A stretch of DNA of 64,000 nucleotides from Verrucomicrobiota bacterium (GTDB lineage: Bacteria > Verrucomicrobiota > Verrucomicrobiia > Chthoniobacterales > JAFAMB01). This document shows, piece after piece, positions 10,494-64,000 of the stretch. The notes beneath the pieces are model-generated. The model saw only the letters and a program-made list of their open reading frames with translations, was not told where the DNA came from and did no database searches. The stretch covers positions 2,380-66,379 of the forward strand of contig JBEEIB010000008.1 of NCBI GenBank assembly GCA_041167675.1, given 5' to 3'. A program made the translations under genes and the position numbers. Each line of letters starts with the position of its first letter. Position 1 is the stretch's first letter.

Positions 10494-11084
10494 TTAGTCG
10501 ATCGGGGTGAGAAAATGTTCCCAATCGCGGACGTTATGCGCGTTTCGGATGAAGTAAGTGACCGGCAATTCCCGGGGCGGTCGCGGTTTCTTTTGCAGCT
10601 CGAGACCCACCTCTTCCGGCAGCCGGTTACCCTTGAGGCTATTGACGCGCTTATCGGCCAACACGCAGTTCTCCCAACTGGTTTGGCCGCCGCGCGACCG
10701 CGGCACCACATGATCGATATTTCCCTCGGTGGGAACCAGCTTCTTGCCGGTGTACTGGCATCGTCCTCCATCTCGTTCCCAAATACCTTTGGTTGAAAGC
10801 TTAGGGCGACGCTTCGGCACTTTGTTGTACCGCGCCAATACCAGCACGGTCGGAATTCTCACCAGCCCACGAACTGTCCGGACCGCGTTATCGTCTTCGC
10901 GAACAGCCAACTCTAACCATTCGTTCCATCGAACCGGCCGCATATCGCCGATTCCTTGAATGTCGAGGCCGGTGGCGTTGCCGTTTGCCATCATGCAAAA
11001 TGCTTGAGCTGGCGTCTTGACATCAATCGCCTGCCAATTCCGATTCAAAACCAGGACGGTCGCCTTATACAACGCGTCGTTCAT
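10494..11084 (-). CDS. HNH endonuclease family protein
   Basis: 196 aa with HNH core CQYTGKKL...NIDHVVPRSRGGQTSWENCVLADKRVNSLKGN. Confidence 0.8.
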   Translation of the reverse strand: MNDALYKATVLVLNRNWQAIDVKTPAQAFCMMANGNATGLDIQGIGDMRPVRWNEWLELAVREDDNAVRTVRGLVRIPTVLVLARYNKVPKRRPKLSTKGIWERDGGRCQYTGKKLVPTEGNIDHVVPRSRGGQTSWENCVLADKRVNSLKGNRLPEEVGLELQKKPRPPRELPVTYFIRNAHNVRDWEHFLTPID

Positions 11085-11146: not shown

Positions 11147-11215
11147 GAGAGCGGTGATTGGTGATAACGCCGAACACTGTGAGCGCGGGCAATGTTGTGA
11201 GAGGTGATTGGTGAT
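11147..11215. repeat. direct repeat GAGA(GC)GGTGATTGGTGAT, two copies 50 nt apart (GGTGATT heptamer doublets)
   Basis: GGTGATTGGTGAT occurs at 11153-11165 and again at 11203-11215, in the divergent region between the HNH and PHP genes. Confidence 0.6.
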
Positions 11216-11386
11216 CAGTACATCAAATAGCGTCCCGCTAGTCGGTGGAGATAGGAAAGCGTTCGGTTTGGCGGTCGGCGTTTTCCGTTCCCGGCGCTCG
11301 CGGCGATGTCGGCGTTCTCGGCGTTTCCTGGAGAGCGAAACAGTCGCCGCTACCGGTTGAGGGCGATTTGTGCACTATTAACCGCA

Positions 11387-12157: not shown

Positions 12158-12208
12158 TCCTTCTGTAAACGGTAATTGGTGACCGTTGATATGCGATGTG
12201 AAATCACC

Positions 12209-12267
12209 AAGGACAGAGAGACGTGCGATCGCCCTACCGCGATGGGCGATGGCAGATCTCTGTCCTT
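12209..12267. terminator. nested hairpin between convergent genes (possible bidirectional terminator)
   Basis: AAGGACAGAGA (12209-12219) pairs perfectly with TCTCTGTCCTT (12257-12267). An inner stem ATCGCCC/GGGCGAT lies inside. A TTTT run follows on the + strand and a TTT run on the - strand. Confidence 0.4.
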
Positions 12268-12293
12268 TGCCATTTTGTGTGACCAAAAACCGA

Positions 12294-14681: not shown

Positions 14682-15443
14682 TTAGCTCTCTGAACCCTGG
14701 AGCTCGTAAGCTAGGACGCTCAAACTATAAATCGATGCCGTTTCGGTCCGAAGTACGATTGGTCCGAGTGATACGGGAAGACACCCGGCGGTCTTCGCTA
14801 GAGCTGATTCAGCCGGAGTGAAGTCGCCCTCCGGACCAATCAACATTAACGTGCTGGTGGGTCGGCGGCCATGTTGTTCGCGAAAATCATGCAGGACCTG
14901 CTTGAAGCTTCGCGCGTCTCCTTGGAGCGAGGCAATGAGCGGGGCTTCATATCGATCGAATTCAGAGAAAAATCTTTTGAGCGAGACTGGCGCATCCACC
15001 GTCGGCAGCCAGTTCTGTCCGCATTGTTTCGCCGCCTCCACCACAACCTGGCGCCATTTCTCGATTCGCTTTCCGTCTTCGCCCTCGGACAACTGAACGA
15101 CTGTTCTATCAGAAATCAGCGGAACAATCCGGCTTACACCAAGTTCGGTCGCCTTCTGAATGATGAGTTCCATGTTCTTCCCTTTCGGAATCGCCTGGGC
15201 GAGGGTAACCGCACACCGGAGGGGACCGGTCTGCGTTACCTGGACCAGCGAAAGTCGAGTCTCAGACGCGCTAAAATCCTGGATCTCAGCAATCGCTTCC
15301 GTCCCTTTCCCATCGAAAACGACTACGCGTGCTCCTACGGCTAAGCGCAGCACATCCCGACAATGATGCGTCTCGTCTTCGTCCAATTTCGGCTGATCAT
15401 GAGACCAGCGTTCCGCCGGTATATAAAATCTGCGATCGCTCAC
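14682..15443 (-). CDS. rsmE: 16S rRNA (uracil1498-N3)-methyltransferase
   Basis: 253 aa. RsmE-type N-terminus (RFYIP...) and C-terminal LIGPEGDFTPAE ... LGPIVLRTETA motif. Confidence 0.9.
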   Translation of the reverse strand: MSDRRFYIPAERWSHDQPKLDEDETHHCRDVLRLAVGARVVVFDGKGTEAIAEIQDFSASETRLSLVQVTQTGPLRCAVTLAQAIPKGKNMELIIQKATELGVSRIVPLISDRTVVQLSEGEDGKRIEKWRQVVVEAAKQCGQNWLPTVDAPVSLKRFFSEFDRYEAPLIASLQGDARSFKQVLHDFREQHGRRPTSTLMLIGPEGDFTPAESALAKTAGCLPVSLGPIVLRTETASIYSLSVLAYELQGSES

Positions 15444-19811: not shown

Positions 19812-19943
19812 ATTTCGTTCATCAAACCTCGCATACCGATTTGCAGATATTCATCGCTCGCGTCTAGACATCGGTGTGTGCTTCTACCTACGAGGCGACG
19901 CGCCACCGTGTCAATAGTTTGGGACCGATCGATTACAGAACTG

Positions 19944-20006
19944 TCATTCGATTAGTCCATTGCGGATTGCGAATTTTGGATTTCGCGTTCCGCACTCCGC
20001 TATTGG
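19944..20006. repeat. nine-unit heptamer array, consensus (C/G)ATTNCG
   Basis: TCATTCG ATTAGTC CATTGCG GATTGCG AATTTTG GATTTCG CGTTCCG CACTCCG CTATTGG. The array ends 32 nt upstream of the ligase ATG. Confidence 0.7.
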
Positions 20007-20037
20007 CCACAATGATGCATATTTGGGCCTTACCTGA

Positions 20038-22707
20038 ATGATCGCAATCCGTTATGAACGTGGAGTCCATTTACCGGGTCTGGATCTTTGGCTCGACCCA
20101 TGGGATGAGCAGCGGACGGCGTTCGTCTCCCATGCCCACAGTGACCATATTGGGAATCATCGAGAAGTAATACTTTCCACGATTACGGCCAAATTGATGA
20201 CGGCTCGACTGCCTGGAAACCGCATCGAACATCACCTGGAATTTCGGGTTCCATTCTCTTTTCGCAATGCGCAGCTCACGTTGTACCCAGCCGGTCATAT
20301 TTACGGCTCAGCTCAGGCGCACGTTTTATTCGAAAATCAGAGTTTACTATACACGGGTGATTTTAAGTTGCGCAAAGGTAAGTCGGCTGAGCCGATCGAA
20401 TGGTGTAAGTCTGATACTCTTATCATGGAAACGACCTACGGCTTGCCACGTTACGTTTTCCCGCCGACCGACCAGGTGGTCACGCAGTTAGTCAAGTTCT
20501 GCGCCGAGGCTATCGAGGATGACGCTACTCCAATATTGTTTGGCTACTCGCTAGGCAAGGCACAGGAGATACTGGCCGCGCTGTTTGGATCCGGATTCCG
20601 CGTCTTGCTTCATCCGACTGTTTTTCGGATGACGAAATTGTATGAAGCACTGCAAGACCGACTGCCACCGTATTCATTATATCGCTCGGAGGAATTGCCG
20701 GGTAGTGTCCTGATTTGTCCGCCCAGTGCTAATCGGACAAGATTAGTTCAGAGCATCAAATCACGAAGAACCGCCATGCTCACTGGCTGGGCACTAAATC
20801 CCGGAGCTAACTATCGTTTTCAGTGTGATGCGGCATTTCCTCTTTCGGATCACGCGGACTATTCCGATCTCTTGAAGTATGTGGAATTAGTCCGACCCCA
20901 ACGGGTTTTTACACTGCATGGCTATGCGAACGAATTTGCAGAAGATCTCCGTCGTCGAGGAGTGGAAGCCTGGGCCCTCGGCGAAGATAACCAGCTGGAA
21001 CTCGCGGTAACACTGGCAATGCCGGAAGTGCCGGTTGCTCGTGATTTTGTCTCGACCCTAGACGACCGTTGCGCGTTTGGCAGATTGGTTGCCGTCTGCG
21101 AAGCAATCAGCGAAGTCACAGGAAAACTGCGAAAGATCGAGCTTTTATCTAACTACTTGCGCAGTCTCGAGCCCGACGATTTGCGGGCGGCAAGCATCTA
21201 TCTCACCGGTCATCCGTTCTCCCAAGCCGATGCTCGAGTGCTGCAAATTGGGTGGGCAGTTGTGCAAAAGTCCCTTATGCAGGCGGCTGCTATTTCTGAG
21301 CTCGAATTTCGACGGATCTCGGCCGGCTATGGTGATGCGGGAAAAGTTGCTTACGAAGTGTTACTCGGAAAAACGACACCGCGCCCGTTCTCGATTGCCG
21401 AAGTGAAAGCGCGATTTGAGAAGCTGGAACAAGCTTCCGGACCGGCGGCCAAGACTGCGCTCCTGACGACCTGGCTGACCGAGCTGGACGCGGCCAGAGG
21501 GAGTTATGTGATCAGAATATTGACCGGTGATCTCAGGATCGGTTTGAAAGAGGGGTTAGTGGAAGAAAGTATTGCTGCTGCCTTTGCCGCGGAGATAGAT
21601 CAAGTACGAGAGGCCCATATGTTGACGGGAGATCTGGGCGAAACCGCGGTTCTGGCATTGAGACATTCGCTGGATACGGCTTCGGTTAATCTATTTCGGC
21701 CCATCAAGTCGATGTTGGGCATTGCTGAACCGACGGCGGATGCGATTGCGAAGCGACTAAGCAATGATTTCCGCGAGCCGCAGGCAATCGCGGAACAGAA
21801 ACTGGATGGTATTCGAGCCCAACTGCACGTGGGCAAAGACCAGAATCGGGTCTATAGTCGAGATCTCCGCGACATCTCCGATCAATTTGCAGAACTAACG
21901 GATCTGAAGTTCTCTCAGACTTTGATCTTGGACGGCGAGGTTCTCGCCTACGACCCCGGACGAAAGCTTACTTTCTTCGATCTGCAAAGACGGCTGGGGC
22001 GAAAGCGGCATCTCGATCTGTTTGAGACCAACGATGTACCCATTGTGTTTGTCGCTTTCGATCTGCTTTGGCTCGACGGAGTGAGTTTGTTGAAGGAGCC
22101 GCTGCGTCGGCGACGGTCATTACTGGAATCGCTGGAATTGCCCGACCTGGTACACCGATCGCATATTCGCCTGGTCTCCACTTCCGATCAAATCGAAGCA
22201 GCCTTCGTTGCTTCAAGGCAAGCGGGCAACGAAGGGTTGATGGTAAAGGATCAAGATAGTTTATACCAGCCGGGCCGACGAGGAGGCAGTTGGATCAAAC
22301 TGAAGAAAGAATTGGCAACTCTCGACGTCGTGGTAGTCGCGGCCGAGCAAGGTCATGGTAAGCGAAGCCACCTGCTGAGCGATTACACGTTTGCCCTCCG
22401 TAATGAGGAAACGCAGGCGCTCGAGACGATTGGCAAAGCCTACTCTGGATTAACCGATTCCGAGATCGAAGAATTAACTGAACATTTCCGTAAAACGACA
22501 GTTCGTCTGAAAGGTCGACTTCACGAAGTATTTCCGGACGTCGTGCTGGAGGTCGCTTTTGACTCGATCCAGCCGAGTCCTCGTCATTCGAGCGGGTTGG
22601 CGCTCCGATTTCCCAGGATCAAATCGATTCGGCACGACAAAACGGTCAGTGAGATCGACACCGTCGAAACCGCCAAGCGGCTGGTTGCGAGCAGTCGCGT
22701 CTTTTAA
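20038..22707 (+). CDS. fusion protein: ligase-associated MBL/beta-CASP exonuclease + ATP-dependent DNA ligase
   Basis: 889 aa. N-terminal roughly 330 aa carry HAHSDH, SDHAD and TLHG (beta-CASP-like). The C-terminal part has ligase motif I EQKLDGIRAQL, EGLMVK, and WIKLKK before the OB region. Confidence 0.9.
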   Translation: MIAIRYERGVHLPGLDLWLDPWDEQRTAFVSHAHSDHIGNHREVILSTITAKLMTARLPGNRIEHHLEFRVPFSFRNAQLTLYPAGHIYGSAQAHVLFENQSLLYTGDFKLRKGKSAEPIEWCKSDTLIMETTYGLPRYVFPPTDQVVTQLVKFCAEAIEDDATPILFGYSLGKAQEILAALFGSGFRVLLHPTVFRMTKLYEALQDRLPPYSLYRSEELPGSVLICPPSANRTRLVQSIKSRRTAMLTGWALNPGANYRFQCDAAFPLSDHADYSDLLKYVELVRPQRVFTLHGYANEFAEDLRRRGVEAWALGEDNQLELAVTLAMPEVPVARDFVSTLDDRCAFGRLVAVCEAISEVTGKLRKIELLSNYLRSLEPDDLRAASIYLTGHPFSQADARVLQIGWAVVQKSLMQAAAISELEFRRISAGYGDAGKVAYEVLLGKTTPRPFSIAEVKARFEKLEQASGPAAKTALLTTWLTELDAARGSYVIRILTGDLRIGLKEGLVEESIAAAFAAEIDQVREAHMLTGDLGETAVLALRHSLDTASVNLFRPIKSMLGIAEPTADAIAKRLSNDFREPQAIAEQKLDGIRAQLHVGKDQNRVYSRDLRDISDQFAELTDLKFSQTLILDGEVLAYDPGRKLTFFDLQRRLGRKRHLDLFETNDVPIVFVAFDLLWLDGVSLLKEPLRRRRSLLESLELPDLVHRSHIRLVSTSDQIEAAFVASRQAGNEGLMVKDQDSLYQPGRRGGSWIKLKKELATLDVVVVAAEQGHGKRSHLLSDYTFALRNEETQALETIGKAYSGLTDSEIEELTEHFRKTTVRLKGRLHEVFPDVVLEVAFDSIQPSPRHSSGLALRFPRIKSIRHDKTVSEIDTVETAKRLVASSRVF

Positions 22708-23352: not shown

Positions 23353-24471
23353 ATGTGTAATGAGGCCATCTCATTTGCTCCCGGACGGGTCGAGCTACTT
23401 GGCAACCACACTGACTATAATCAGGGCCTCGTGTTATCTGCCGCTATCCATTTGGGCGTGACTGTTCGTGCCAGAAAAGACAGTTCCAACCTAATCACAG
23501 TAAGTTCCGCCACCAACGGACGGCGCGCCGAAATCGATATTTCAAGTATTGCACGGCTTCACACCGAGTCCTGGGCCAACTATCCACTAGGGGTCATTGA
23601 GACGTTGAGACAGACCGGTTTTCCACTGGGCGGAACTACAATTGATATCGATAGCGACCTGCCGTTAGGTGCTGGCCTTTCCAGTTCGGCCGCGTTGGAG
23701 GTTGCTACCGCATTTGCGCTCCGTGAGCTGTATCAACTTCCACTGGATCCGATGCAAATTGCTAAGCTCTGCCAACGGGCTGAAAACGAGTTCGTCGGCG
23801 TGCAGTGTGGACTTCTAGATCAGGCATCTTCGGTATTTGGTCAGGCGGGAAAAGCAATTCTCCTAGATTTCCGTTCCGTAACCGCCGAACCGATTGGGTT
23901 GCCTTCGGAGGTAGCCATTCTGTTGTTAGCTTCCGGAATTCCACATGCACTAACGGGCGGAGAGTACAACGAACGGCGCGAGCAATGCGCTAGAGCTGCA
24001 GCTCTGCTCGGTGTGACTGCACTACGCGAAACGACAACAGCGGCGGTCCAAGCGGCCAAAATGGACCCGGTGGTGCAACGACGCGCGCTCCATATCACGG
24101 GAGAAAACGAGCGGGTCAGTCGAGGAATTAAGGCGCTGCGCCGCGACGATCCGGAGACATTTGGTCAGTTGATGTTCGAATCGCATCGAAGCTCCCGGGA
24201 CAACTTTGAGAACAGCACGCCTGCCTTAGACTGTTTGGTAGAAATAGCCGAGCAGACGTCCGGTGTTTATGGCTCCAGATTAACCGGTGGCGGTTTTGGC
24301 GGATCGACAGTTTCACTGGTCAGTCGTGCGCAAGCCGACCAAATTAAAGAGTCGATGGTTGAGCAATATTTTGAGCGAATGGGCATACGCTCTTCGTCGA
24401 TGCTAACACTCCCATCCCAAGGAGCCGTTATTCTTGCCTCAAGCTCGGATGAGATGACAAATAGCAAATAG
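23353..24471 (+). CDS. galK: galactokinase
   Basis: GRVELLGNHTDYN (galactokinase signature) and GHMP motif PLGAGLSSSAA. ATG 23353 is preferred to the GTG at 23344. The last 5 codons and the stop lie in a heptamer array. Confidence 0.87.
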   Translation: MCNEAISFAPGRVELLGNHTDYNQGLVLSAAIHLGVTVRARKDSSNLITVSSATNGRRAEIDISSIARLHTESWANYPLGVIETLRQTGFPLGGTTIDIDSDLPLGAGLSSSAALEVATAFALRELYQLPLDPMQIAKLCQRAENEFVGVQCGLLDQASSVFGQAGKAILLDFRSVTAEPIGLPSEVAILLLASGIPHALTGGEYNERREQCARAAALLGVTALRETTTAAVQAAKMDPVVQRRALHITGENERVSRGIKALRRDDPETFGQLMFESHRSSRDNFENSTPALDCLVEIAEQTSGVYGSRLTGGGFGGSTVSLVSRAQADQIKESMVEQYFERMGIRSSSMLTLPSQGAVILASSSDEMTNSK

Positions 24472-24487
24472 CGGATAGCAAATTGGA
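24453..24487. repeat. heptamer array GATGACA AATAGCA AATAGCG GATAGCA AATTGGA
   Basis: Five 7-nt units that overlap the galK 3' end (MTNSK*). Confidence 0.75.
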
Positions 24488-24568: not shown

Positions 24569-25504
24569 ATGGAAAAGAGCGTCACTCCGCGGCTGGCCGA
24601 TATTCTTAAATCGTACGAAAATATCGGCGGCATCAACAATATTGATGGGTCCAATCTGCCCTCAAAACGGGCCGTAGCCCAAATCTGTGACGATCTTCTG
24701 CAAATCCTGTTTCCAGGGTACCACGATGAGGAACCCATTCATTCCGAGCAAGTAGCGCAAATTATTTCTGCTCGCGTTCTGAGCGTTGCCGATCGCATAC
24801 GGATCGAAGCATTTAAAAGCCTGAGAACTCGGGAGCCGCGATGCCCGGAGAAACAAGCCGAAGCCATCACACTTGATCTGATTCGATGCATTCCCAAGAT
24901 TCGTCTGCTTTTACGTACCGATGTAGAAGCGGCATATGAGGGCGATCCGGCAAGTAAGAGTTACGAGGAAATAATCGTTAGCTATCCCTGTGTCGAGGCG
25001 ATCGCCATTCAACGCATCGCACACGCCCTTTATTTAATGGAGCTGCCATTGCTCCCGCGGATTATGACCGAGTGGGCCCATAGCCGGACAGGGATCGATA
25101 TTCATCCGGGCGCCCAAATCGGTGACTATTTCTTTATCGATCACGGAACCGGTGTCGTCATCGGCGAAACCTGCGTTATCGGAGACCACGTAAAGCTCTA
25201 TCACGGGGTTACCCTGGGAGCGCGGAGCTTCCAAAAAGATGATGAGGGCCGAATTAAAAAGGGCGGCAAGCGACATCCAAATGTTGAGGATTGGGTTACG
25301 ATCTATCCAAATTCCACCATTCTGGGAGGAGAGACGACGATCGGAGCTCATACCACAATCGGAGCGAATGTGTTCTTAATGGAAAGCGTTCCGCCAAACT
25401 CTTTGGTCACGAACGAAAAATCGCAGGTCAAGATCGTCTCCAAACGAGATCTAACCGCACAGAGCAATGGAGCGGCGGAGCCGTTGCCGGAATATGAGAT
25501 CTGA
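24569..25504 (+). CDS. cysE: serine O-acetyltransferase (long form)
   Basis: Hexapeptide-repeat core DIHPGAQIGDYFFIDHGTGVVIGETCVIGDHVKLYHGVTLG with a SATase-type N-terminal helical region. Confidence 0.88.
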   Translation: MEKSVTPRLADILKSYENIGGINNIDGSNLPSKRAVAQICDDLLQILFPGYHDEEPIHSEQVAQIISARVLSVADRIRIEAFKSLRTREPRCPEKQAEAITLDLIRCIPKIRLLLRTDVEAAYEGDPASKSYEEIIVSYPCVEAIAIQRIAHALYLMELPLLPRIMTEWAHSRTGIDIHPGAQIGDYFFIDHGTGVVIGETCVIGDHVKLYHGVTLGARSFQKDDEGRIKKGGKRHPNVEDWVTIYPNSTILGGETTIGAHTTIGANVFLMESVPPNSLVTNEKSQVKIVSKRDLTAQSNGAAEPLPEYEI

Positions 25505-25779
25505 TCATTCTCGCCTTAGGCTCGAATGAAATCGCAAATCGCAAATCGCAGATAGCAAATTGGCCGACAGAGCTGTTCAGTGCGTTGGCCCTTTATCCGG
25601 CGCGAGGTATCGATCGAGTGGACCCTCACGAATCATTAGTCCCGGCCCGGTATCGTCGCGAACATCGGGCATCCGTGATCGGTGATAGCGCGCGGAAGCG
25701 CCAGATGGCGAACACAAAAGTCAATCTGCTATCTGCTATTTGCTATCTGTCATTTCATTCGAGCCTAAGGCGAGAATGA
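25505..25779. repeat. 275-bp inverted-repeat (MITE-like) element with heptamer sub-arrays
   Basis: 25505-25532 is the perfect reverse complement of 25752-25779 (28 nt). The arms extend to about 58 nt (24 of 30 further matches) through AATCGCA/GATAGCA arrays. The centre is 159 nt. Confidence 0.75.
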
Positions 25780-25784
25780 CGGCG

Positions 25785-26084
25785 TTAGTACAGCTGCTCC
25801 TCTTCGTGAAGTCCGGAGCCTTCCCGGATCGAGCGGAGGCGACGGCGCACCCCGAGCTTGGATCGAGGACCATTGATCAAGTCAACGACTACGCCGCCGA
25901 CGGCAGGAACAAAGGTGGCAACTGCGACAACCATCAGTCCGAGCGCGACCGTAGCTTGATTCTTTTTGTCTAGCCTACTGCCCAAGAGAATTCCGAATGC
26001 GCAAGCGATTGTTGCCTGAGAAACGCTTAAGAGAGTTGCCGAGGTGAGTGATAAAGTTAGAGTCTTACTGTGCTCGGTCGTCAT
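25785..26084 (-). CDS. small membrane protein (two predicted TM helices)
   Basis: 99 aa with two hydrophobic stretches (ATIACAFGILLG and LGLMVVAVATFVPAVGGVVV). No family recognised. Confidence 0.45.
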   Translation of the reverse strand: MTTEHSKTLTLSLTSATLLSVSQATIACAFGILLGSRLDKKNQATVALGLMVVAVATFVPAVGGVVVDLINGPRSKLGVRRRLRSIREGSGLHEEEQLY

Positions 26085-44874: not shown

Positions 44875-44930
44875 CGCATTCGAATATTCACCTTTCGCAT
44901 TCAGCATTCCGCAATCCGCATTTCGCCTGT
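44875..44930. repeat. heptamer array, CATTNCG subfamily
   Basis: CGCATTC GAATATT CACCTTT CGCATTC AGCATTC CGCAATC CGCATTT CGCCTGT. It overlaps the 3' end of the hydrolase gene, encoding AKCGLRNAECER*. Confidence 0.7.
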
Positions 44931-59999: not shown

Positions 60000-60020
60000 C
60001 GCCTCCAATAACCGACAAAG

Positions 60021-60073
60021 AATGACAGATGACAAATGACAGATGGTACACCGCGTGACCTGTCATTTGTCAT
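60021..60073. repeat. opposed heptamer arrays forming a 14-bp perfect hairpin
   Basis: AATGACA GATGACA AATGACA GATGGTA (60021-60048) faces CCTGTCA TTTGTCA (60059-60072). 60029-60042 pairs perfectly with 60060-60073, with a 17-nt loop. Confidence 0.8.
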
Positions 60074-60118
60074 GTCGATATTGGCTATTAATCATTTGCT
60101 CGCTAGTTTCGACGCGCC

Positions 60119-61057
60119 ATGTGGCTTGCCTACTACGTTCATCACCTCAACCCTTTCCTTATTCGGTTTTATGATCAATTTGGAATCCGCTGGTACGGAG
60201 TGGCCTATCTCTGCGGATTTATCGCTGCTTTTTACTTGCTCAAGTGGCTGGCGCGAAAAGGCTACGGTTCGCTGACCGAAGGGCAGGTTGCCGACTTTAC
60301 TTTTTATGCCGCCCTATTCGGTGTTCTGCTTGGTGGCCGGCTTGGTTATGTACTTTTCTATCGGCCTGAGATGCTCACCGATCCCATCAGCATACTGCGA
60401 GTCGGCGATGGCGGAATGGCAAGTCACGGCGGCATCATCGGACTAATTATTTTTTCGTGGATCTACGCCCGACGACATAAAATTTCTTGGACGGGCATCG
60501 GGGACAATCTGGTGGCGGTTGCTCCGATCGGCCTTCTTTTTGGACGAATCGCCAACTTTATTAATGGCGAACTCTGGGGACACCCGACAAACGTGCCGTG
60601 GGCGGTGCAGTTCCCCAGCGAATTACTCGACTATCCCGATAAGGCACAGACTGCAATCGATCAGTGCTCGGCATTGAGCCCAAACCTCGACTCAGTCAAT
60701 ACAATTATCGAAGCCGCACGAACCAATCCCCAGGTTCGCGAAATCTTGTCTCATATTCTCACTCCACGCCATCCCAGCCAGCTCTACGAAGCCCTGCTTG
60801 AAGGGATCATACTTTTCGTCTGCCTGATCACCATTCGTCTCCGATTCCGTAAACCGGATGGACTCACGACCGGTTGCTTTTTTCTTCTCTATCCGATCAT
60901 GCGGATCATCGGAGAAACTTTCCGCGTACCGGATGCCCCGCTGACTGGGCCGTTCACTCGGGGTCAATTTCTTTCTCTGTTTATGTTCCTCATCGCGCTC
61001 GGCTTCTTTTGGCGGGTCTGGAAGACCTGGCCAAAAGGAATGACAAATGACAAATGA
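60119..61057 (+). CDS. lgt: prolipoprotein diacylglyceryl transferase
   Basis: 312 aa. Lgt motifs IRWYGVAYLCGF, GGRLGYVLFY, GGMASHGG and FGRIANFINGELWG. The last 5 codons and stop (MTNDK*) lie in a heptamer array. Confidence 0.93.
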   Translation: MWLAYYVHHLNPFLIRFYDQFGIRWYGVAYLCGFIAAFYLLKWLARKGYGSLTEGQVADFTFYAALFGVLLGGRLGYVLFYRPEMLTDPISILRVGDGGMASHGGIIGLIIFSWIYARRHKISWTGIGDNLVAVAPIGLLFGRIANFINGELWGHPTNVPWAVQFPSELLDYPDKAQTAIDQCSALSPNLDSVNTIIEAARTNPQVREILSHILTPRHPSQLYEALLEGIILFVCLITIRLRFRKPDGLTTGCFFLLYPIMRIIGETFRVPDAPLTGPFTRGQFLSLFMFLIALGFFWRVWKTWPKGMTNDK

Positions 61058-61063
61058 CAGATG
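61039..61063. repeat. heptamer array AATGACA x3 + GATG
   Basis: Three perfect AATGACA units at 61039-61059. TGA recurs in all three frames. Confidence 0.8.
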
Positions 61064-61099
61064 TGCCCAGACTCCCCAACGCTAGCGGCTTCCCGAAAT

Positions 61100-61498
61100 T
61101 TATTTCGAAGCTAATCTCAGGAACTGGTTTGCTCCGATTTTAACGATGATTTCGTGTTCCTGAGTTGAATGCCTGGCTTGATAAACCGAGATCTTGCCGG
61201 AGTCATCCACGCCAATTTTGAGAGCGTTGTATTCGGGGAGTGATGTCACCCCGCTCGGAACCGGATAATAAGCAGTGCCTTTCCATCGGACGACCTCCTT
61301 TGCTTGGTCCCGTTTGGCATCGAAACCCACGGCAATCGGATCTCCTACCGCGGTCGGTTGGGAGATCCGTTCCAGTTCATGCCGGCTTTGCCAATCCACT
61401 GCAACGGCCCAGGAAACACCGAGAAGGCATATTGAGAACGCCAACATCAGGCCATACGCCCATTTTCCCACCGGGAGGCTTTCGTCGACATCTCTCAT
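61100..61498 (-). CDS. membrane-anchored hypothetical protein
   Basis: ATG 61498 (MRDVDESLPVGKWAYGLMLAFSICLLGVSWAV) is preferred, because the track's TTG extension to 61534 translates a heptamer array. Confidence 0.45.
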   Translation of the reverse strand: MRDVDESLPVGKWAYGLMLAFSICLLGVSWAVAVDWQSRHELERISQPTAVGDPIAVGFDAKRDQAKEVVRWKGTAYYPVPSGVTSLPEYNALKIGVDDSGKISVYQARHSTQEHEIIVKIGANQFLRLASK

Positions 61499-61512
61499 CC
61501 GCTGGATACTGA

Positions 61513-61601
61513 GATAGCAAATAGCAAATAGCAAATATGCAGATAACCAAGGATGAATCGGGGAGCACTCTGCAGACGCTTACCCTATTTGTCATCTGTC
61601 A
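61513..61601. repeat. opposed heptamer arrays in the helicase/hypothetical intergenic gap
   Basis: GATAGCA AATAGCA AATAGCA AATATGC AGATAAC (61513-61547) faces TTTGTCA TCTGTCA (61588-61601). The arms are partially complementary. Confidence 0.7.
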
Positions 61602-64000
61602 TTCGCGGCCACATCCGTCCCAAATAGCGGCGGCCCATTTGGTTCGGTGCCAAAGCAGGCAGCGGTTGTCGAGCCGGGCTCTGCGTAGTCTGAACGTATA
61701 CCGACGCCAACTCCTGCAATTGGTTCCAGCGCTCCCATTCGTAATTGGGCGCCTGAACAATTTGACGCAACAGACTTCGCCACTCAGTCAGAGCTCTCTC
61801 GATGTCGCCGTGTCGAATGTTATTATTAACCAACTTGTGACGGCCGATCTGATGTTCGATCAAATCACGAACCACCTCCGAGGCACCCGAGCCATAGGCG
61901 ATGGGCAGGCCAAGTTCAAGGTAGCCCGAAAAATCGGCCCGTTGATACGTATTTTGGCAAATGGCAGCTAATCGGCCCCCGGCCCGGCTATCATCCATGG
62001 CGAATCGATGACCCGCGCGTAGGTCAGCCAAATCGAATACCAAATCACTAATCGAGTAATCAATCTCTTCTAACCCGGCAGCAACAGCTAAACCCTCTCC
62101 TTGATTGAAAAAACTGAAAATAATACCGCGACGAGTCGGAACGCCCCGGTCATCAACTAATCCGAGCTGACGCCAAGCGAATGCGGGCGAAACTGAGAGA
62201 TCGAGTGCCTCACATTCAGACCGGCAGACGCATTGCTGGCATACCAATGGATAACTTCGCCGCATTTCCGGGTCAGCCAAGTACCGTCCCTGAGCATCAA
62301 GATGGCCTCGGGCCAGGGCTCCGCCGAAACGGAATCGCCCATAAGCGGTATTTCTTCGAGTGACCAAATCGTGGAACTCGCCCTCCACTTCTTTTGCGAT
62401 GAGCGGAACCAAATCGTTTAGAAATTTTTCCTGCGCCAACCGACCGTTTACTGGGATCAGCGGATAATGCTCTCGCAACACCTTGCGGAACCACTTGGCG
62501 GCTAACCAACCTCTATCAGTGATGCTGGCAATCGGCAGCTCTCGGCCATACTCAAAATGTTTGTTATCCAAACGAATTTTACAAAGGTTCCCAAATCCGA
62601 ACGGCTGCAGCGTCGTGACCATGCTAAGCGCTGGCCGCCATCGCCCGTTTTCCCTTCTTATCCAAAGATTCCCGAGCGCAGTATCCGATAGCGGTGGAGA
62701 GATTTCCCACTCTCCCCGAGAGTTCAACATCTCGGCCTCATGTCGCCGGACCAGCCGCCCTCGCTCGGCATCCACCGGTAATCGACAAACCAGAACTCGA
62801 TCCTGCTCGGCCACAGCACCAGCTGCCGATTGCTCTATTCTCTCATAGAATTTTTCTACTCCGATCAACAGTGGCCGCGTCGAGAAGAGATGTGTTGCCA
62901 CCTTGGTCACGGCTCGAAACGGATCCTCTCCACGACCTGCCGCTTCCCGCATTACTGCAATCATCGAGGGCCAGTCGACCGGATCCGCCCGTCGAAGTTT
63001 ACTCGGAAATGCTTCATGGAGCCGGGGAATCTCTGGGGTGACAAGCGCATAACCAATCTCATCCAAACCACGCCTCCCCGCACGACCAAACATCTGCAGC
63101 AACTCATCCGCCCTTACCTGACGTTGAAAGTTGCCCGCTTGATAATGGGTGCCGGTCACCAGTACCGAGCGCATGGAAAAATTAATTCCGGCAGCCAGTC
63201 CCATGGTAGCAACCACTACTCGGAGCTGCCCTTTTTTAGCGAGCGGTTCAATGATTCCGGCCCGAACCGCGTAACTCAACCCGCTATGATGAAATGCTAC
63301 TCGAGATCGGAGCAATCGCCCAAGGGGTTCACCGGCTAAGACCGACTGTTCCTGAGTAAGAACCAACGGCTCTTCGGCGGGCAACGCAGAAGCGAGGGAA
63401 ATTGCCAGATCTTCAGCTCCGAGGCGCCTTGGAGCGAATACCAGGATCGGTCCCAGGTCCGCGATTAACGCGCGCGCGATCAGCTTCGGCCAATAGCCGC
63501 GAGCATTGGCCGGAGCGCGTGCCGGCAGCTCACTCAACATGACTTCTTCCAGCGGGACCGGCCTTTGCCGATGTTCCACTAATTCTACTCTTCGTCCGTT
63601 GCGCGCCAGCCAGTCCACAATGTCATGCGGATTAGCAACGCTGCCGCTCAGCAGAAGGAGTTGTGTTTCCGGCGGAGCCAGCGAAAGGATCAGCTCGTAA
63701 TTCGTTCCACGTACCGGGTCCGCCAACAGTTGATATTCATCAATTACCAACAATCTCGGACCTTCCCCGCGCAAAAACCGGGCTTTTTGGGTCTCGAGCG
63801 TCGCGACCACTACTTTGGCATCAAGATTTTCGGCCAAATCGCCAGTGGCGATGCCAACATCCCATCCACGTTGTCGCCACTCGGCTAATTTATCATTGGC
63901 CAGGGCACGGGTCGGCACGGTGTAGATCGCCTGTCCTTTCAGGGAATCATAGATCAGCTCAAAGATATAGGTCTTCCCCGACCCGGTCGGCGCCTGAACG
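61585..64000 (-). CDS. Ski2/HelY-like DEAD/DEAH-box helicase with long uncharacterised C-terminal region (5' end outside window)
   Basis: The reading frame continues past the track M to the window edge (…APTGSGKTYIFELIYDSLKGQAIYTVPTRALANDK). Walker B-type VIDEYQ, SGS, and FHHSGL...MGLAAGINF motifs. About 450 aa of unassigned C-terminus. Confidence 0.88.
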   Translation of the reverse strand, partial: VQAPTGSGKTYIFELIYDSLKGQAIYTVPTRALANDKLAEWRQRGWDVGIATGDLAENLDAKVVVATLETQKARFLRGEGPRLLVIDEYQLLADPVRGTNYELILSLAPPETQLLLLSGSVANPHDIVDWLARNGRRVELVEHRQRPVPLEEVMLSELPARAPANARGYWPKLIARALIADLGPILVFAPRRLGAEDLAISLASALPAEEPLVLTQEQSVLAGEPLGRLLRSRVAFHHSGLSYAVRAGIIEPLAKKGQLRVVVATMGLAAGINFSMRSVLVTGTHYQAGNFQRQVRADELLQMFGRAGRRGLDEIGYALVTPEIPRLHEAFPSKLRRADPVDWPSMIAVMREAAGRGEDPFRAVTKVATHLFSTRPLLIGVEKFYERIEQSAAGAVAEQDRVLVCRLPVDAERGRLVRRHEAEMLNSRGEWEISPPLSDTALGNLWIRRENGRWRPALSMVTTLQPFGFGNLCKIRLDNKHFEYGRELPIASITDRGWLAAKWFRKVLREHYPLIPVNGRLAQEKFLNDLVPLIAKEVEGEFHDLVTRRNTAYGRFRFGGALARGHLDAQGRYLADPEMRRSYPLVCQQCVCRSECEALDLSVSPAFAWRQLGLVDDRGVPTRRGIIFSFFNQGEGLAVAAGLEEIDYSISDLVFDLADLRAGHRFAMDDSRAGGRLAAICQNTYQRADFSGYLELGLPIAYGSGASEVVRDLIEHQIGRHKLVNNNIRHGDIERALTEWRSLLRQIVQAPNYEWERWNQLQELASVYVQTTQSPARQPLPALAPNQMGRRYLGRMWPRMTDDK

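Follow-up and report, generated by a model that had tools for sequence, protein, structure and literature searches.

A 64,000-nt stretch of a Verrucomicrobiota genome (Chthoniobacterales; contig JBEEIB010000008.1, positions 2,380 to 66,379; hereafter the window) carries tandem arrays of 7-nt units at the starts and ends of its genes, most densely around lgt, and raises the question of where such arrays come from and what they are. By gene content the window is an ordinary chromosomal stretch (valS, pgi, glnD, an FtsX-type permease, lgt, galK, DNA ligase, histidine kinases). It is not cyanobacterial, as a preliminary description made from the letters alone had stated: the nearest taxon-named matches are Chthoniobacterales and Verrucomicrobia metagenome-assembled genomes (MAGs), and the window's exact ValRS is present on soil-metagenome contigs. 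A look-up of its exact Lgt sequence returned no record. The arrays were studied in the window and in related metagenomic contigs, and many of the counts given below include orthologous, non-independent junctions. We give roughly even credence to the reading that they are the terminal arms, or the orphan or decayed arms, of selfish cassettes that carry a four-helix-bundle gene, resemble the intervening sequences (IVSs) of rRNA and lie between genes.

In every relative examined, a small gene between bioB and a helicase gene has a forward (F) array upstream and a reverse (R) array downstream in the gene's own sense, forward being the strand that reads RATGACA or RATAGCA and reverse the one that reads TGTCATY or TGCTATY. 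Its product is a four-helix-bundle protein of family PF05635 ('S23p'), scoring 53-66 bits against TIGR02436 (cutoff 24) and homologous to PDB 2GSC. Two alleles were found, protein type A with RATGACA arrays and protein type B with RATAGCA arrays, and these two units are also the main ones among the window's arrays. The type-A cassette occurs in both orientations. On contig L091, which matches the window at 99.5% identity over 5.7 kb, a type-B cassette begins about 100 nt past the window's right end and within about 100 nt of the helicase start codon, with RATAGCA and TGCTAT arrays on its flanks and a TIGR02436 score of 66 bits (cutoff 24). The four-helix-bundle gene is frameshifted in L097 and L101, and L099 and L100 have an internal deletion after which an F array, a 54-aa remnant and an R array are left.

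The association between this gene family and inverted heptamer arrays is general. Four-helix-bundle proteins were searched with tblastn against the PLSDB plasmids, and 21 loci were inspected, with metagenomic Verrucomicrobial loci added. The genes counted numbered 31 and span Cyanobacteriota, Spirochaetota, Bacillota, Bacteroidota, Chloroflexota and Verrucomicrobiota. Period-7 arrays stand on both flanks of 24 of the 31 genes, compared to 1 of 83 control open reading frames (ORFs) of the same replicons, and an inverted match of at least 12 nt joins the flanks of 25 of the 31 genes but of none of the 83 controls. Inverted period-7 arrays flank the gene in Nostoc, Dolichospermum, Planktothrix, Gloeocapsa, Euhalothece, Treponema, Monoglobus, Bernardetia and Chlorohelix, with units that vary by element (GGGAAAA, GGGTGTG, GGAAGTC, GTAATTC, ATTTTAG, ACTGGTC, AATCGTA, ATGAAGG, TAGTGAT and others). 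In 50-kb regions, six of the seven strong period-7 arrays of Nostoc punctiforme plasmid pNPUN01 lie beside its two four-helix-bundle genes, and all four arrays of Treponema plasmid pTS1 lie beside its lone one. Along a series of Nostoc cassettes the unit changes from GGAAGTC to GCAAGTC to GCAATTC on both arms, tracking the divergence of the protein. As the arms change together while the cassettes occupy different gene neighbourhoods, the cassette probably moves as a unit with its arms coupled. In Xanthomonas, XCC0516 is the crystallised four-helix-bundle protein 2GSC, a homologue of the lineage's protein, and GGGAATC array #15 overlaps the XCC0516 start codon (Rehm et al. 2015, supplementary table, PMC4692102). 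In the full-text literature, with subscription journals thinly covered, no paper stating a general link between four-helix-bundle genes and heptamer arrays was found beyond a passing note in a paper on Coxiella (see below).

Further features of these cassettes were noted. Several plasmid cassettes (loci L111-L132, e.g. L116, L122, L123/L125, L119/L124 and L120) stand between the cistrons of defence or other operons, namely hsdS/hsdR, DISARM drmD/pglX, beside cas1/cas2, DUF1156/HEPN and an RND adaptor/permease pair, and their arrays abut the stop and start codons of the neighbours. Nostoc plasmid cassettes (L114, 26797-28051; L127, 824-1050) lie beside genes for XisH/XisI and for tyrosine recombinases; similar phyletic distributions of XisH/XisI and of TAACTGA repeats have been reported (MacGregor 2015, PMC4679880). 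In Chlorohelix (L134, 27005-29639), the gene downstream of the cassette, annotated as an N-6 DNA methylase, contains four more period-7 arrays, their units (ATGAAGG/TTCATCC) related to those flanking the cassette. In the Verrucomicrobial lineage, a small conserved hairpin with a TTCG/GAAG-type loop separates the helicase start codon from the array on that side of the cassette (L084, about 14905-14920; L092/L102, just past the R array, CTTTAACGAAGTTAAAG; L104/L091, GTACCGAAGGTAC), and the two alleles, type A and type B, have different sequences for it.

The period-7 signal itself is strong. All arrays located by the preliminary description were recovered at their coordinates (the lgt region, 24453-87, 25524-65, 25727-61, 19944-20006, 44875-930 and 11153/11203), and Tandem Repeats Finder (TRF) returned period-7 rows at 24458, 25529, 25724, 36166, 44886, 60022, 61039 and 61514. 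In a self-similarity test of the window, segments scoring at least 10 numbered 6 at period 7, far above the 0.10 found in dinucleotide-preserving shuffles; of the other periods between 4 and 15, period 14 (2x7) gave 3 segments and the rest 0-2. The degenerate RATRRCA doublet RATRRCARATRRCA, allowing at most one mismatch, matched the window 18 times against 0.9 expected, and the GGTGATT-doublet motif GGTGATNGGTGAT 3 times against 0.16 expected. Local duplication within the window does not account for the family: in 152 kb of orthologous lgt loci from relatives (L084-L090; Lgt identity 96-74%) there are 39 period-7 arrays, with no other period giving more than one, compared to 9 in 1.27 Mb of control lgt loci from other bacteria (L001-L080; Lgt identity at most 45% among the matches listed), where periods 6, 9, 12 and 15 predominate. 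Units of the RATGACA and RATAGCA types were found down to the relative with 77% Lgt identity, and the 74% relative (L090) is nearly without them. One related unit family takes in 40 of 42 arrays. Outside arrays, single family heptamers occur at about Markov expectation except AATGACA (25 observed, 12.8 expected), so that neither avoidance nor enrichment of lone heptamers gave a clear signal. The GGTGATT doublets and the 36166 array have two units each and are absent from the orthologous junction of an 85-89% relative. With their tandem 7-nt units, dispersed unit family and intergenic position, the arrays are heptanucleotide arrays of the dispersed kind known as long simple sequence repeats (LSSRs) and as the short tandemly repeated repetitive (STRR) sequences of cyanobacteria.

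Placement was counted for 42 family arrays from the window and six related loci, with genes predicted by a simple home-made codon-usage caller. Conserved coding sequence contains none of the 42, even though 78% of bases lie deeper than 30 nt within predicted genes; this bears out the proposed restriction to gene boundaries. Five arrays fall inside called ORFs, whose start codons were over-extended through stop-free R arrays. In tandem, F arrays offer an ATG and, in each of the three frames, TGA or TAG; R arrays contain neither a stop codon nor an ATG. Fifteen ORFs terminate within F arrays, and there is no case of an ORF whose 3' end reads through an R array. The arrays thus supply C-terminal tails, each followed by the stop codon: GMTNDK in Lgt, RMTDDK in the helicase and DEMTNSK in galactokinase, and the racemase that ends in IAKH in the window ends in MTNDK in the 85-89% relative L139. 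For lgt, the final five codons (MTNDK) and the stop codon come from the F array, and a C-terminal alignment shows that this tail stands in for unconserved residues. Three gene tails share their frame relative to the array (the MTNDK type), for which the chance is about 1/9. The orientation rule at gene ends is partly by construction, since only F arrays stop ORFs and only R arrays permit start extension. The order of neighbouring arrays is not such an effect: for arrays at most 700 nt apart, at 10 or more distinct junctions with orthologous repeats included, F-then-R was counted 27 times, R-then-F never, F-F once and R-R three times.

Extension of N-termini through stop-free R arrays is a systematic annotation artefact in this lineage. 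The N-terminus of protein P0153 (L088, 10001-10060), LPTICHLSFVICHF, was produced by the gene caller reading through an R array, and the window ORF 61100-61534 starts with MLFAICYLSIQR, an extension (61499-61534) through an R array. A promoter role for TTGTCA (as a -35 element) in R arrays was considered on account of one candidate site, TTGTCA-17-AATCAT, upstream of lgt, and was dropped as a general explanation; the TTGTCA spacing is not preserved in L085 and L086.

Opposed arrays are able to pair, as had been proposed. Positions 60029-60042 are the exact reverse complement of 60060-60073, forming a 14-bp perfect stem with a 17-nt loop, and the predicted RNA folds are strong for 60012-60082 (-24.3 kcal/mol, z = -4.9) and for 25500-25788 (-137.5 kcal/mol, z = -9.5), with -22.5 kcal/mol (z = -2.6) for 19940-20010. 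Solo arrays are unstructured by the same measure (z from 0 to +1.3; 61039-63 at +1.3, and no structure at 44875-930). The element at 25505-25783 is the most elaborate: its left arm (25505-63) consists of a lead-in, three AATCGCA units and GATAGCA, and its right arm (25722-83) of a reverse array and the lead-in; the 58-nt arms are 90% complementary, and the 27-nt non-repeat lead-in occurs exactly twice, once per strand. The arm at 24424-87 is 82% identical to 25507-63 and 85% complementary to 25722-83. Unit types agree in most paired arms but not in all, the array at 61513 (AGC type) standing opposite that at 61588 (GAC type). Comparison of the window's loci with relatives for compensatory changes between paired arms yielded no support for selection on pairing.

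Among close strains the arrays are near-invariant, and the unit-number polymorphism for which the preliminary description had proposed a comparison did not appear: the window and L091-L097 have the same counts at three arrays. The strains compared are 95-100% identical at the neighbouring 132-aa gene and differ by a few point substitutions and a single one-unit difference, in L098, whose helicase-end array has the unit GATGACC and one extra copy. In more distant relatives, arrays at one junction differ in the number of units, in unit type and even in orientation. The region upstream of lgt holds F and R in the window, an F array and a decayed R arm with four uncompensated substitutions in L084, and R only in L085 and L086; the 60021-60048 array is kept in L084 and takes varied forms in L085, L086 and L088. 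The array at the end of lgt is unchanged in L091-L097 and has orthologues of 3-5 units in L084, L085 and L086. Overall, arrays persist at orthologous junctions over relatives with 77-96% Lgt identity, and between the window and the 85-89% relative they occupy different junctions, through gain or loss. The arrays at 19944-20006 are absent at the orthologous junction of L139 and the 11153-11215 doublets have no counterpart there. At 12158-12293, L139 has an intact ATGACA x3 and TGTCAT x4 pair, each array holding a gene's stop codon, where the window retains only AATGGCAAAGGACA and a period-7 trace. Inverted arrays also mark rearrangement breakpoints: compared with the window, L086 has the 132-aa gene in flipped orientation, between inverted ATGACA arrays at which the breakpoints lie.

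We propose the following account, in which shared units, long stems and gain and loss between relatives all follow from a cassette origin. A full cassette runs from an F heptamer array through a four-helix-bundle gene (TIGR02436/PF05635, Avd-related) to an R heptamer array. Such elements would settle solely at gene boundaries, a restriction explained by the stop codons that the F arm provides: the F arm would close the upstream gene within at most five codons, replacing its last ones, and the R arm, having neither stop nor ATG, would be tolerated before a start codon. With both arms present, the transcript or single-stranded DNA would fold into a long stem, which, by analogy with the rRNA versions cut by RNase III, may let the element sit cheaply between cistrons. 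Loss of the ORF would leave ORF-less F/R hairpins, such as 25505-25783 and 60021-60073, and loss of one arm would leave solo arrays, such as those at 24453, 44875 and 61039, so that decay would pass from intact to frameshifted, internally deleted, ORF-less pair, solo arm and trace. The exclusive F-then-R polarity fits this account, since an F-ORF-R cassette that loses its ORF can leave F-R alone, and the turnover of arrays together with the uncompensated decay of the L084 arm fits selfish elements better than conserved regulators. Cassette anatomy, boundary placement, polarity, folding, turnover between relatives and the general association of the gene family with inverted heptamer arrays are observed; we infer the descent of the orphan arrays from cassettes, as well as processing of their stems by RNase III and the way in which the elements move.

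Several observations weigh against this account. No array in the window adjoins a four-helix-bundle gene (hmmsearch found no PF05635 or TIGR02436 ORF within the window), the spacers of the window's F/R pairs hold no cassette remnant, coding or non-coding, and the 159-nt interior of 25505-25783 is unique among about 600 kb of related loci, with no four-helix-bundle remnant. Arrays outnumber cassettes by about 10:1 in the sample, an excess the account leaves unexplained; decay alone would need many past insertions, or else an independent spread of arrays. In the lineage the cassette is always at one junction, and the pairing of A with ATGACA and B with ATAGCA amounts to about two independent observations. 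RNase III cleavage is established solely for rRNA IVSs of other organisms, and neither a transposase, nor a target-site duplication, nor any other mobility mechanism was identified. Lastly, conservation of the R array upstream of the 132-aa gene exceeds that of the sequence around it, the 61513-47 array and leader being kept in relatives of 83% protein identity unlike the upstream spacer, which hints at a host function in at least some copies.

That conservation is among the points in favour of the main rival, under which the arrays are sites for a trans-acting factor that reads the 7-nt register and form a genome-wide, host-useful network at gene ends, operating post-transcriptionally or at the nucleoid level. 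The factor would most plausibly be the four-helix-bundle protein, which is pentameric, or else a cold-shock-domain or S1-type protein. One unit family does recur at dozens of unrelated junctions and persists in the 77-96% Lgt relatives, and unit type follows protein type in the lineage as it does in Nostoc. Xanthomonas combines 186 GGGAATC arrays with a four-helix-bundle gene bearing the same unit (PMC4692102), and binding of cold-shock proteins (Csp), S1 or CsrA was proposed for TAACTGA arrays (MacGregor 2015, PMC4679880). A network of binding sites sits poorly, however, with the change of unit type, copy number and orientation at one junction between relatives, with presence and absence that differ by junction in the 85-89% relatives, with the uncompensated decay of one arm in L084 and with lone heptamers that are neither avoided nor strongly enriched outside arrays; the neighbours, moreover, are unrelated housekeeping genes with no shared theme. 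We consider this rival unlikely, but it is compatible with a cassette origin and we leave it open.

Host elements like the repetitive extragenic palindromic (REP) sequences are a less probable alternative, serving as factor-independent or bidirectional terminators, or as mRNA-stabilising 3' hairpins, in a genome without canonical intrinsic terminators. The majority of arrays do lie at gene 3' ends, paired arrays fold strongly, convergent junctions have F/R pairs that give each gene a stop in an F arm of its own (L084, L139), and the window is not enriched in canonical terminators with a stem and T-run (28 compared to 23.9 in shuffles). Yet arrays commonly stand alone, without structure, and the stems have no T-run behind them; F/R pairs also take up regions of divergent promoters (60021-73 and 19944-20006), and in some pairs the arms are 500-1200 nt apart with whole genes between them. 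In L084 the hairpin ahead of lgt is destroyed, and a plain hairpin role leaves the zero count of R-then-F unaccounted for. Intrinsic (Rho-independent) terminators were themselves rejected, the stems being A/T-rich and lacking a T-run. The arrays resemble REPs, REP doublets (REPINs) and MITEs (miniature inverted-repeat transposable elements) in being short intergenic palindromic or inverted-repeat elements in many copies, often at operon 3' ends, with doublets forming long hairpins, but their arms are tandem heptamers instead of a fixed 20-40-nt palindrome, no REP-associated tyrosine transposase (RAYT) or other transposase was seen and interiors are not repeated. Assignment to MITEs or REPINs was rejected on a limited sample, interiors being unique in about 600 kb of related loci and no Y1 transposase occurring in the relatives' gene tables. 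Integron attC sites were rejected as well (no integrase, no attC core, housekeeping neighbourhoods).

It is improbable that the arrays are neutral microsatellites, produced by slippage with a heptamer bias and confined by selection to intergenic DNA and to the stop-giving orientation. Such slippage was proposed by Mrazek (2007), and a summary of that paper gives heptamers as the commonest LSSR class in many genomes; the partly constructional orientation rule at gene ends and the point-mutational decay of arrays are also in keeping with it. Local slippage would nonetheless predict unrelated units, where 40 of 42 arrays share one family, and it would not lead one to expect matched-unit inverted partners, the 27:0 polarity, nearly constant copy number among 95-100% strains or the concerted change of arms beside four-helix-bundle genes.

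Contingency loci, in which gain and loss of units would switch neighbouring genes by phase variation, are very improbable: tandem repeats do stand at start and stop codons and one unit-number difference separates the window from L098 at the helicase end, but eight strains (95-100%) have identical unit numbers at three arrays, which are thus not hypervariable, the neighbours are housekeeping genes (lgt, galK, bioB, helicase), and after a 7-nt unit change in an F array the ORF would still be closed a few codons on, stops being present in all frames.

Compared to known systems, the preliminary description was right to point to the STRR sequences. These are reportedly tandem heptanucleotide arrays scattered through non-coding DNA, each genome having several related unit families, as described by Mazel and colleagues in 1990. 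Their units in heterocyst-forming cyanobacteria are CCCCAGT, TTGGTCA and CAACAGT, and we know of no established function for them. Likewise, the Nostoc plasmid four-helix-bundle genes are flanked by dispersed heptamer arrays, and the unit TTGGTCA is one base off the TCGGTCA and TTTGTCA units seen here. Cyanobacterial STRR in the strict sense was set aside, the host being Chthoniobacterales and the units RATGACA and RATAGCA. The statement that no such family had been described for this kind of genome also stands, in that full-text literature on the lineage, with subscription journals thinly covered, yielded none. What the preliminary description missed is that heptamer arrays of this kind are wider than cyanobacteria, occurring as GGGAATC in Xanthomonas and TAACTGA in Beggiatoaceae; it also missed the F-then-R polarity, the supply of stop codons by F arrays and the bracketing of cassettes.

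In X. campestris, 186 GGGAATC arrays include 70 inverted pairs (70-75 in Xanthomonas), and 83% of arrays keep their gene context between related species while differing in length (Rehm et al. 2015, PMC4692102). Like these and the GGGGAYT arrays of Nostoc/Anabaena (PMC4692102), the arrays studied here are intergenic, of a single heptamer family and few units, and occur singly and as convergent inverted pairs. Unlike them, they belong to another phylum and are A/T-rich: GGGAATC and GGGGAYT are G-rich and were studied as formers of G-quadruplexes, a class rejected here, since RATGACA and RATAGCA have no tract of three or four G and cannot adopt such a fold. Rehm et al. describe neither stop-codon supply, nor a strict F-then-R polarity, nor a link to a cassette. 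The TAACTGA arrays of Beggiatoaceae, Cyanobacteria and Bacteroidetes have 2-6 copies at about 170 intergenic sites near gene ends, carry stop codons in the forward orientation, are translatable in reverse and are patchy in phyletic distribution (MacGregor 2015, PMC4679880). They share with our arrays the single heptamer, the few copies, the position near gene ends and the contrast between a stopping forward and a translatable reverse strand, but they lie mostly a few nt upstream of starts, forward, with one inverted set, unlike the F arrays at 3' ends and the usual inverted pairs of the window's lineage.

The closest parallel in anatomy is the IVS of Coxiella 23S rRNA, in which an S23p ORF has two to three tandem GACAGAT units upstream in the same orientation, RNase III cuts the terminal stem at the first repeat, repeat number varies by strain and ORF decay is under way (Warrier et al. 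2016, PMC4990558). GACAGAT is GATGACA in a shifted register, that is, the unit of the type-A cassette in the same orientation to the ORF, and in both systems an S23p/PF05635 ORF lies within stem-forming terminal inverted repeats and undergoes decay. The position is different. Classical IVSs (Coxiella, Leptospira and others) are inserted in helix 25 or 45 of 23S rRNA, whereas all copies here lie between protein-coding genes; the window does have terminal inverted repeats with long stems, but most arrays here have no ORF, and RNase III excision is known for the rRNA case alone.

From these comparisons we tentatively suggest, as a possibility that falls short of an even chance, that STRR, Xanthomonas GGGAATC and Verrucomicrobial RATGACA arrays are the terminal repeats, orphans or trans-targets of one widespread, hitherto unrecognised class of intercistronic TIGR02436/PF05635 (Avd-like) cassette, of which the 23S IVS would be one insertion context and in which heptamer and protein would co-evolve. 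Tandem heptamers have been on record in bacterial genomes since about 1990 (STRR), and the window adds a new phylum, in an abundant and largely uncultured group of soil Verrucomicrobiota. The sharing of a unit between arrays and the arms of a four-helix-bundle gene, in an architecture found in six phyla and the Coxiella IVS, provides a handle on the origin of such repeats. If the link holds, it would join STRR/LSSR repeats, rRNA intervening sequences and the four-helix-bundle genes of restriction, CRISPR and other operons, and would account for annotation artefacts such as MTNDK-type C-terminal tails and N-terminal extensions through R arrays.

The arrays of the window and the genes about lgt are listed in Table 1.

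Table 1. Heptamer arrays of the window and adjoining genes (positions are those of the window).
Feature	Position	Strand	Context or basis
Two GGTGATT GGTGAT doublets, 50 nt apart, direct orientation	11153..11215	+	HNH/PHP divergent junction; weak two-unit members
Decayed F/R pair remnant	12158..12293	.	PHP/racemase convergent junction
ATTGCGG-subfamily arrays, F/R hairpin	19944..20006	+	Divergent junction upstream of ATP-dependent DNA ligase gene
Arm of 62 nt: conserved lead-in ATTCTTGCCTCAAGCTCGGATGA and F array GATGACA AATAGCA AATAGCG GATAGCA AATTGG	24424..24487	+	Galactokinase stop inside, 24469-71
ORF-less stem-loop element, 279 nt	25505..25783	+	Two arms and 159-nt interior
AATGCGG-subfamily array, F on minus strand	44875..44930	-	Overlaps alpha/beta-hydrolase gene end
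F array AATGACA GATGACA AATGACA GATGGTA	60021..60048	+	DUF2905 gene (-) / lgt (+) divergent junction; TRF 60022-60045
R arm CCTGTCATTTGTCAT	60059..60073	+	Partner of 60021-48 array; hairpin about 60013-60077
lgt, prolipoprotein diacylglyceryl transferase	60119..61057	+	Homologues with PF01790
F array AATGACA x3 and GATG	61039..61063	+	Holds lgt stop 61055-57
132-aa lineage-specific gene	61100..61498	-	ORF translation; arrays on both sides
RATAGCA array GATAGCA AATAGCA AATAGCA AATATGC AGATAAC, F on plus strand	61513..61547	+	TRF score 48, 100% matches
Two-unit F array AATGACA GATGACA then AATAG (plus strand TTTGTCA TCTGTCA)	61588..61601	-	Helicase 3' end
DEAD-box helicase gene, cut by window end	61585..64000	-	Window's right edge

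The array at 61588-601 encodes the final helicase codons, MTDDK, and abuts the helicase stop at 61585-87, and the array at 44875-930 covers the final 12 codons and the stop (44888-90) of the alpha/beta-hydrolase gene. The product of the 132-aa gene has no Pfam match. An Rfam scan of the window returned one match, a tRNA, and none at arrays.

Minor observations were made at some of these junctions and in more distant genomes. A MOSC-domain gene lies between lgt and the 132-aa gene in L084 (10948-11892), L085, L088 and L098 and is missing from the window's lineage, where, at 61064-61099, the lgt-end array is all that remains at the junction. Intergenic inverted pairs of other heptamers were seen on two unrelated PVC contigs, in a Planctomycetota MAG (L024, 980-1123 and 2948-3128; ACGGAGA/ACTGAGA) and in an Opitutaceae MAG (L003, 4699-4766; GGTTCAG type); in the former, array polarity relative to the 3' end of the upstream gene is opposite to that in the window's lineage. 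Near the GGTGATT doublets, an imperfect 9-nt tandem repeat, TCGGCGTTC (11275-11325; about 5.9 copies, TRF score 46), spans the predicted start of the PHP gene at 11306, and a stand-alone HNH endonuclease gene (10494-11084) lies between valS and the PHP gene, a position kept in L083 and L139. The product of the DNA ligase gene (20038-22707) has 889 aa and joins a beta-CASP/RMMBL metallo-hydrolase segment to a complete ATP-dependent ligase with N, adenylation and C domains.

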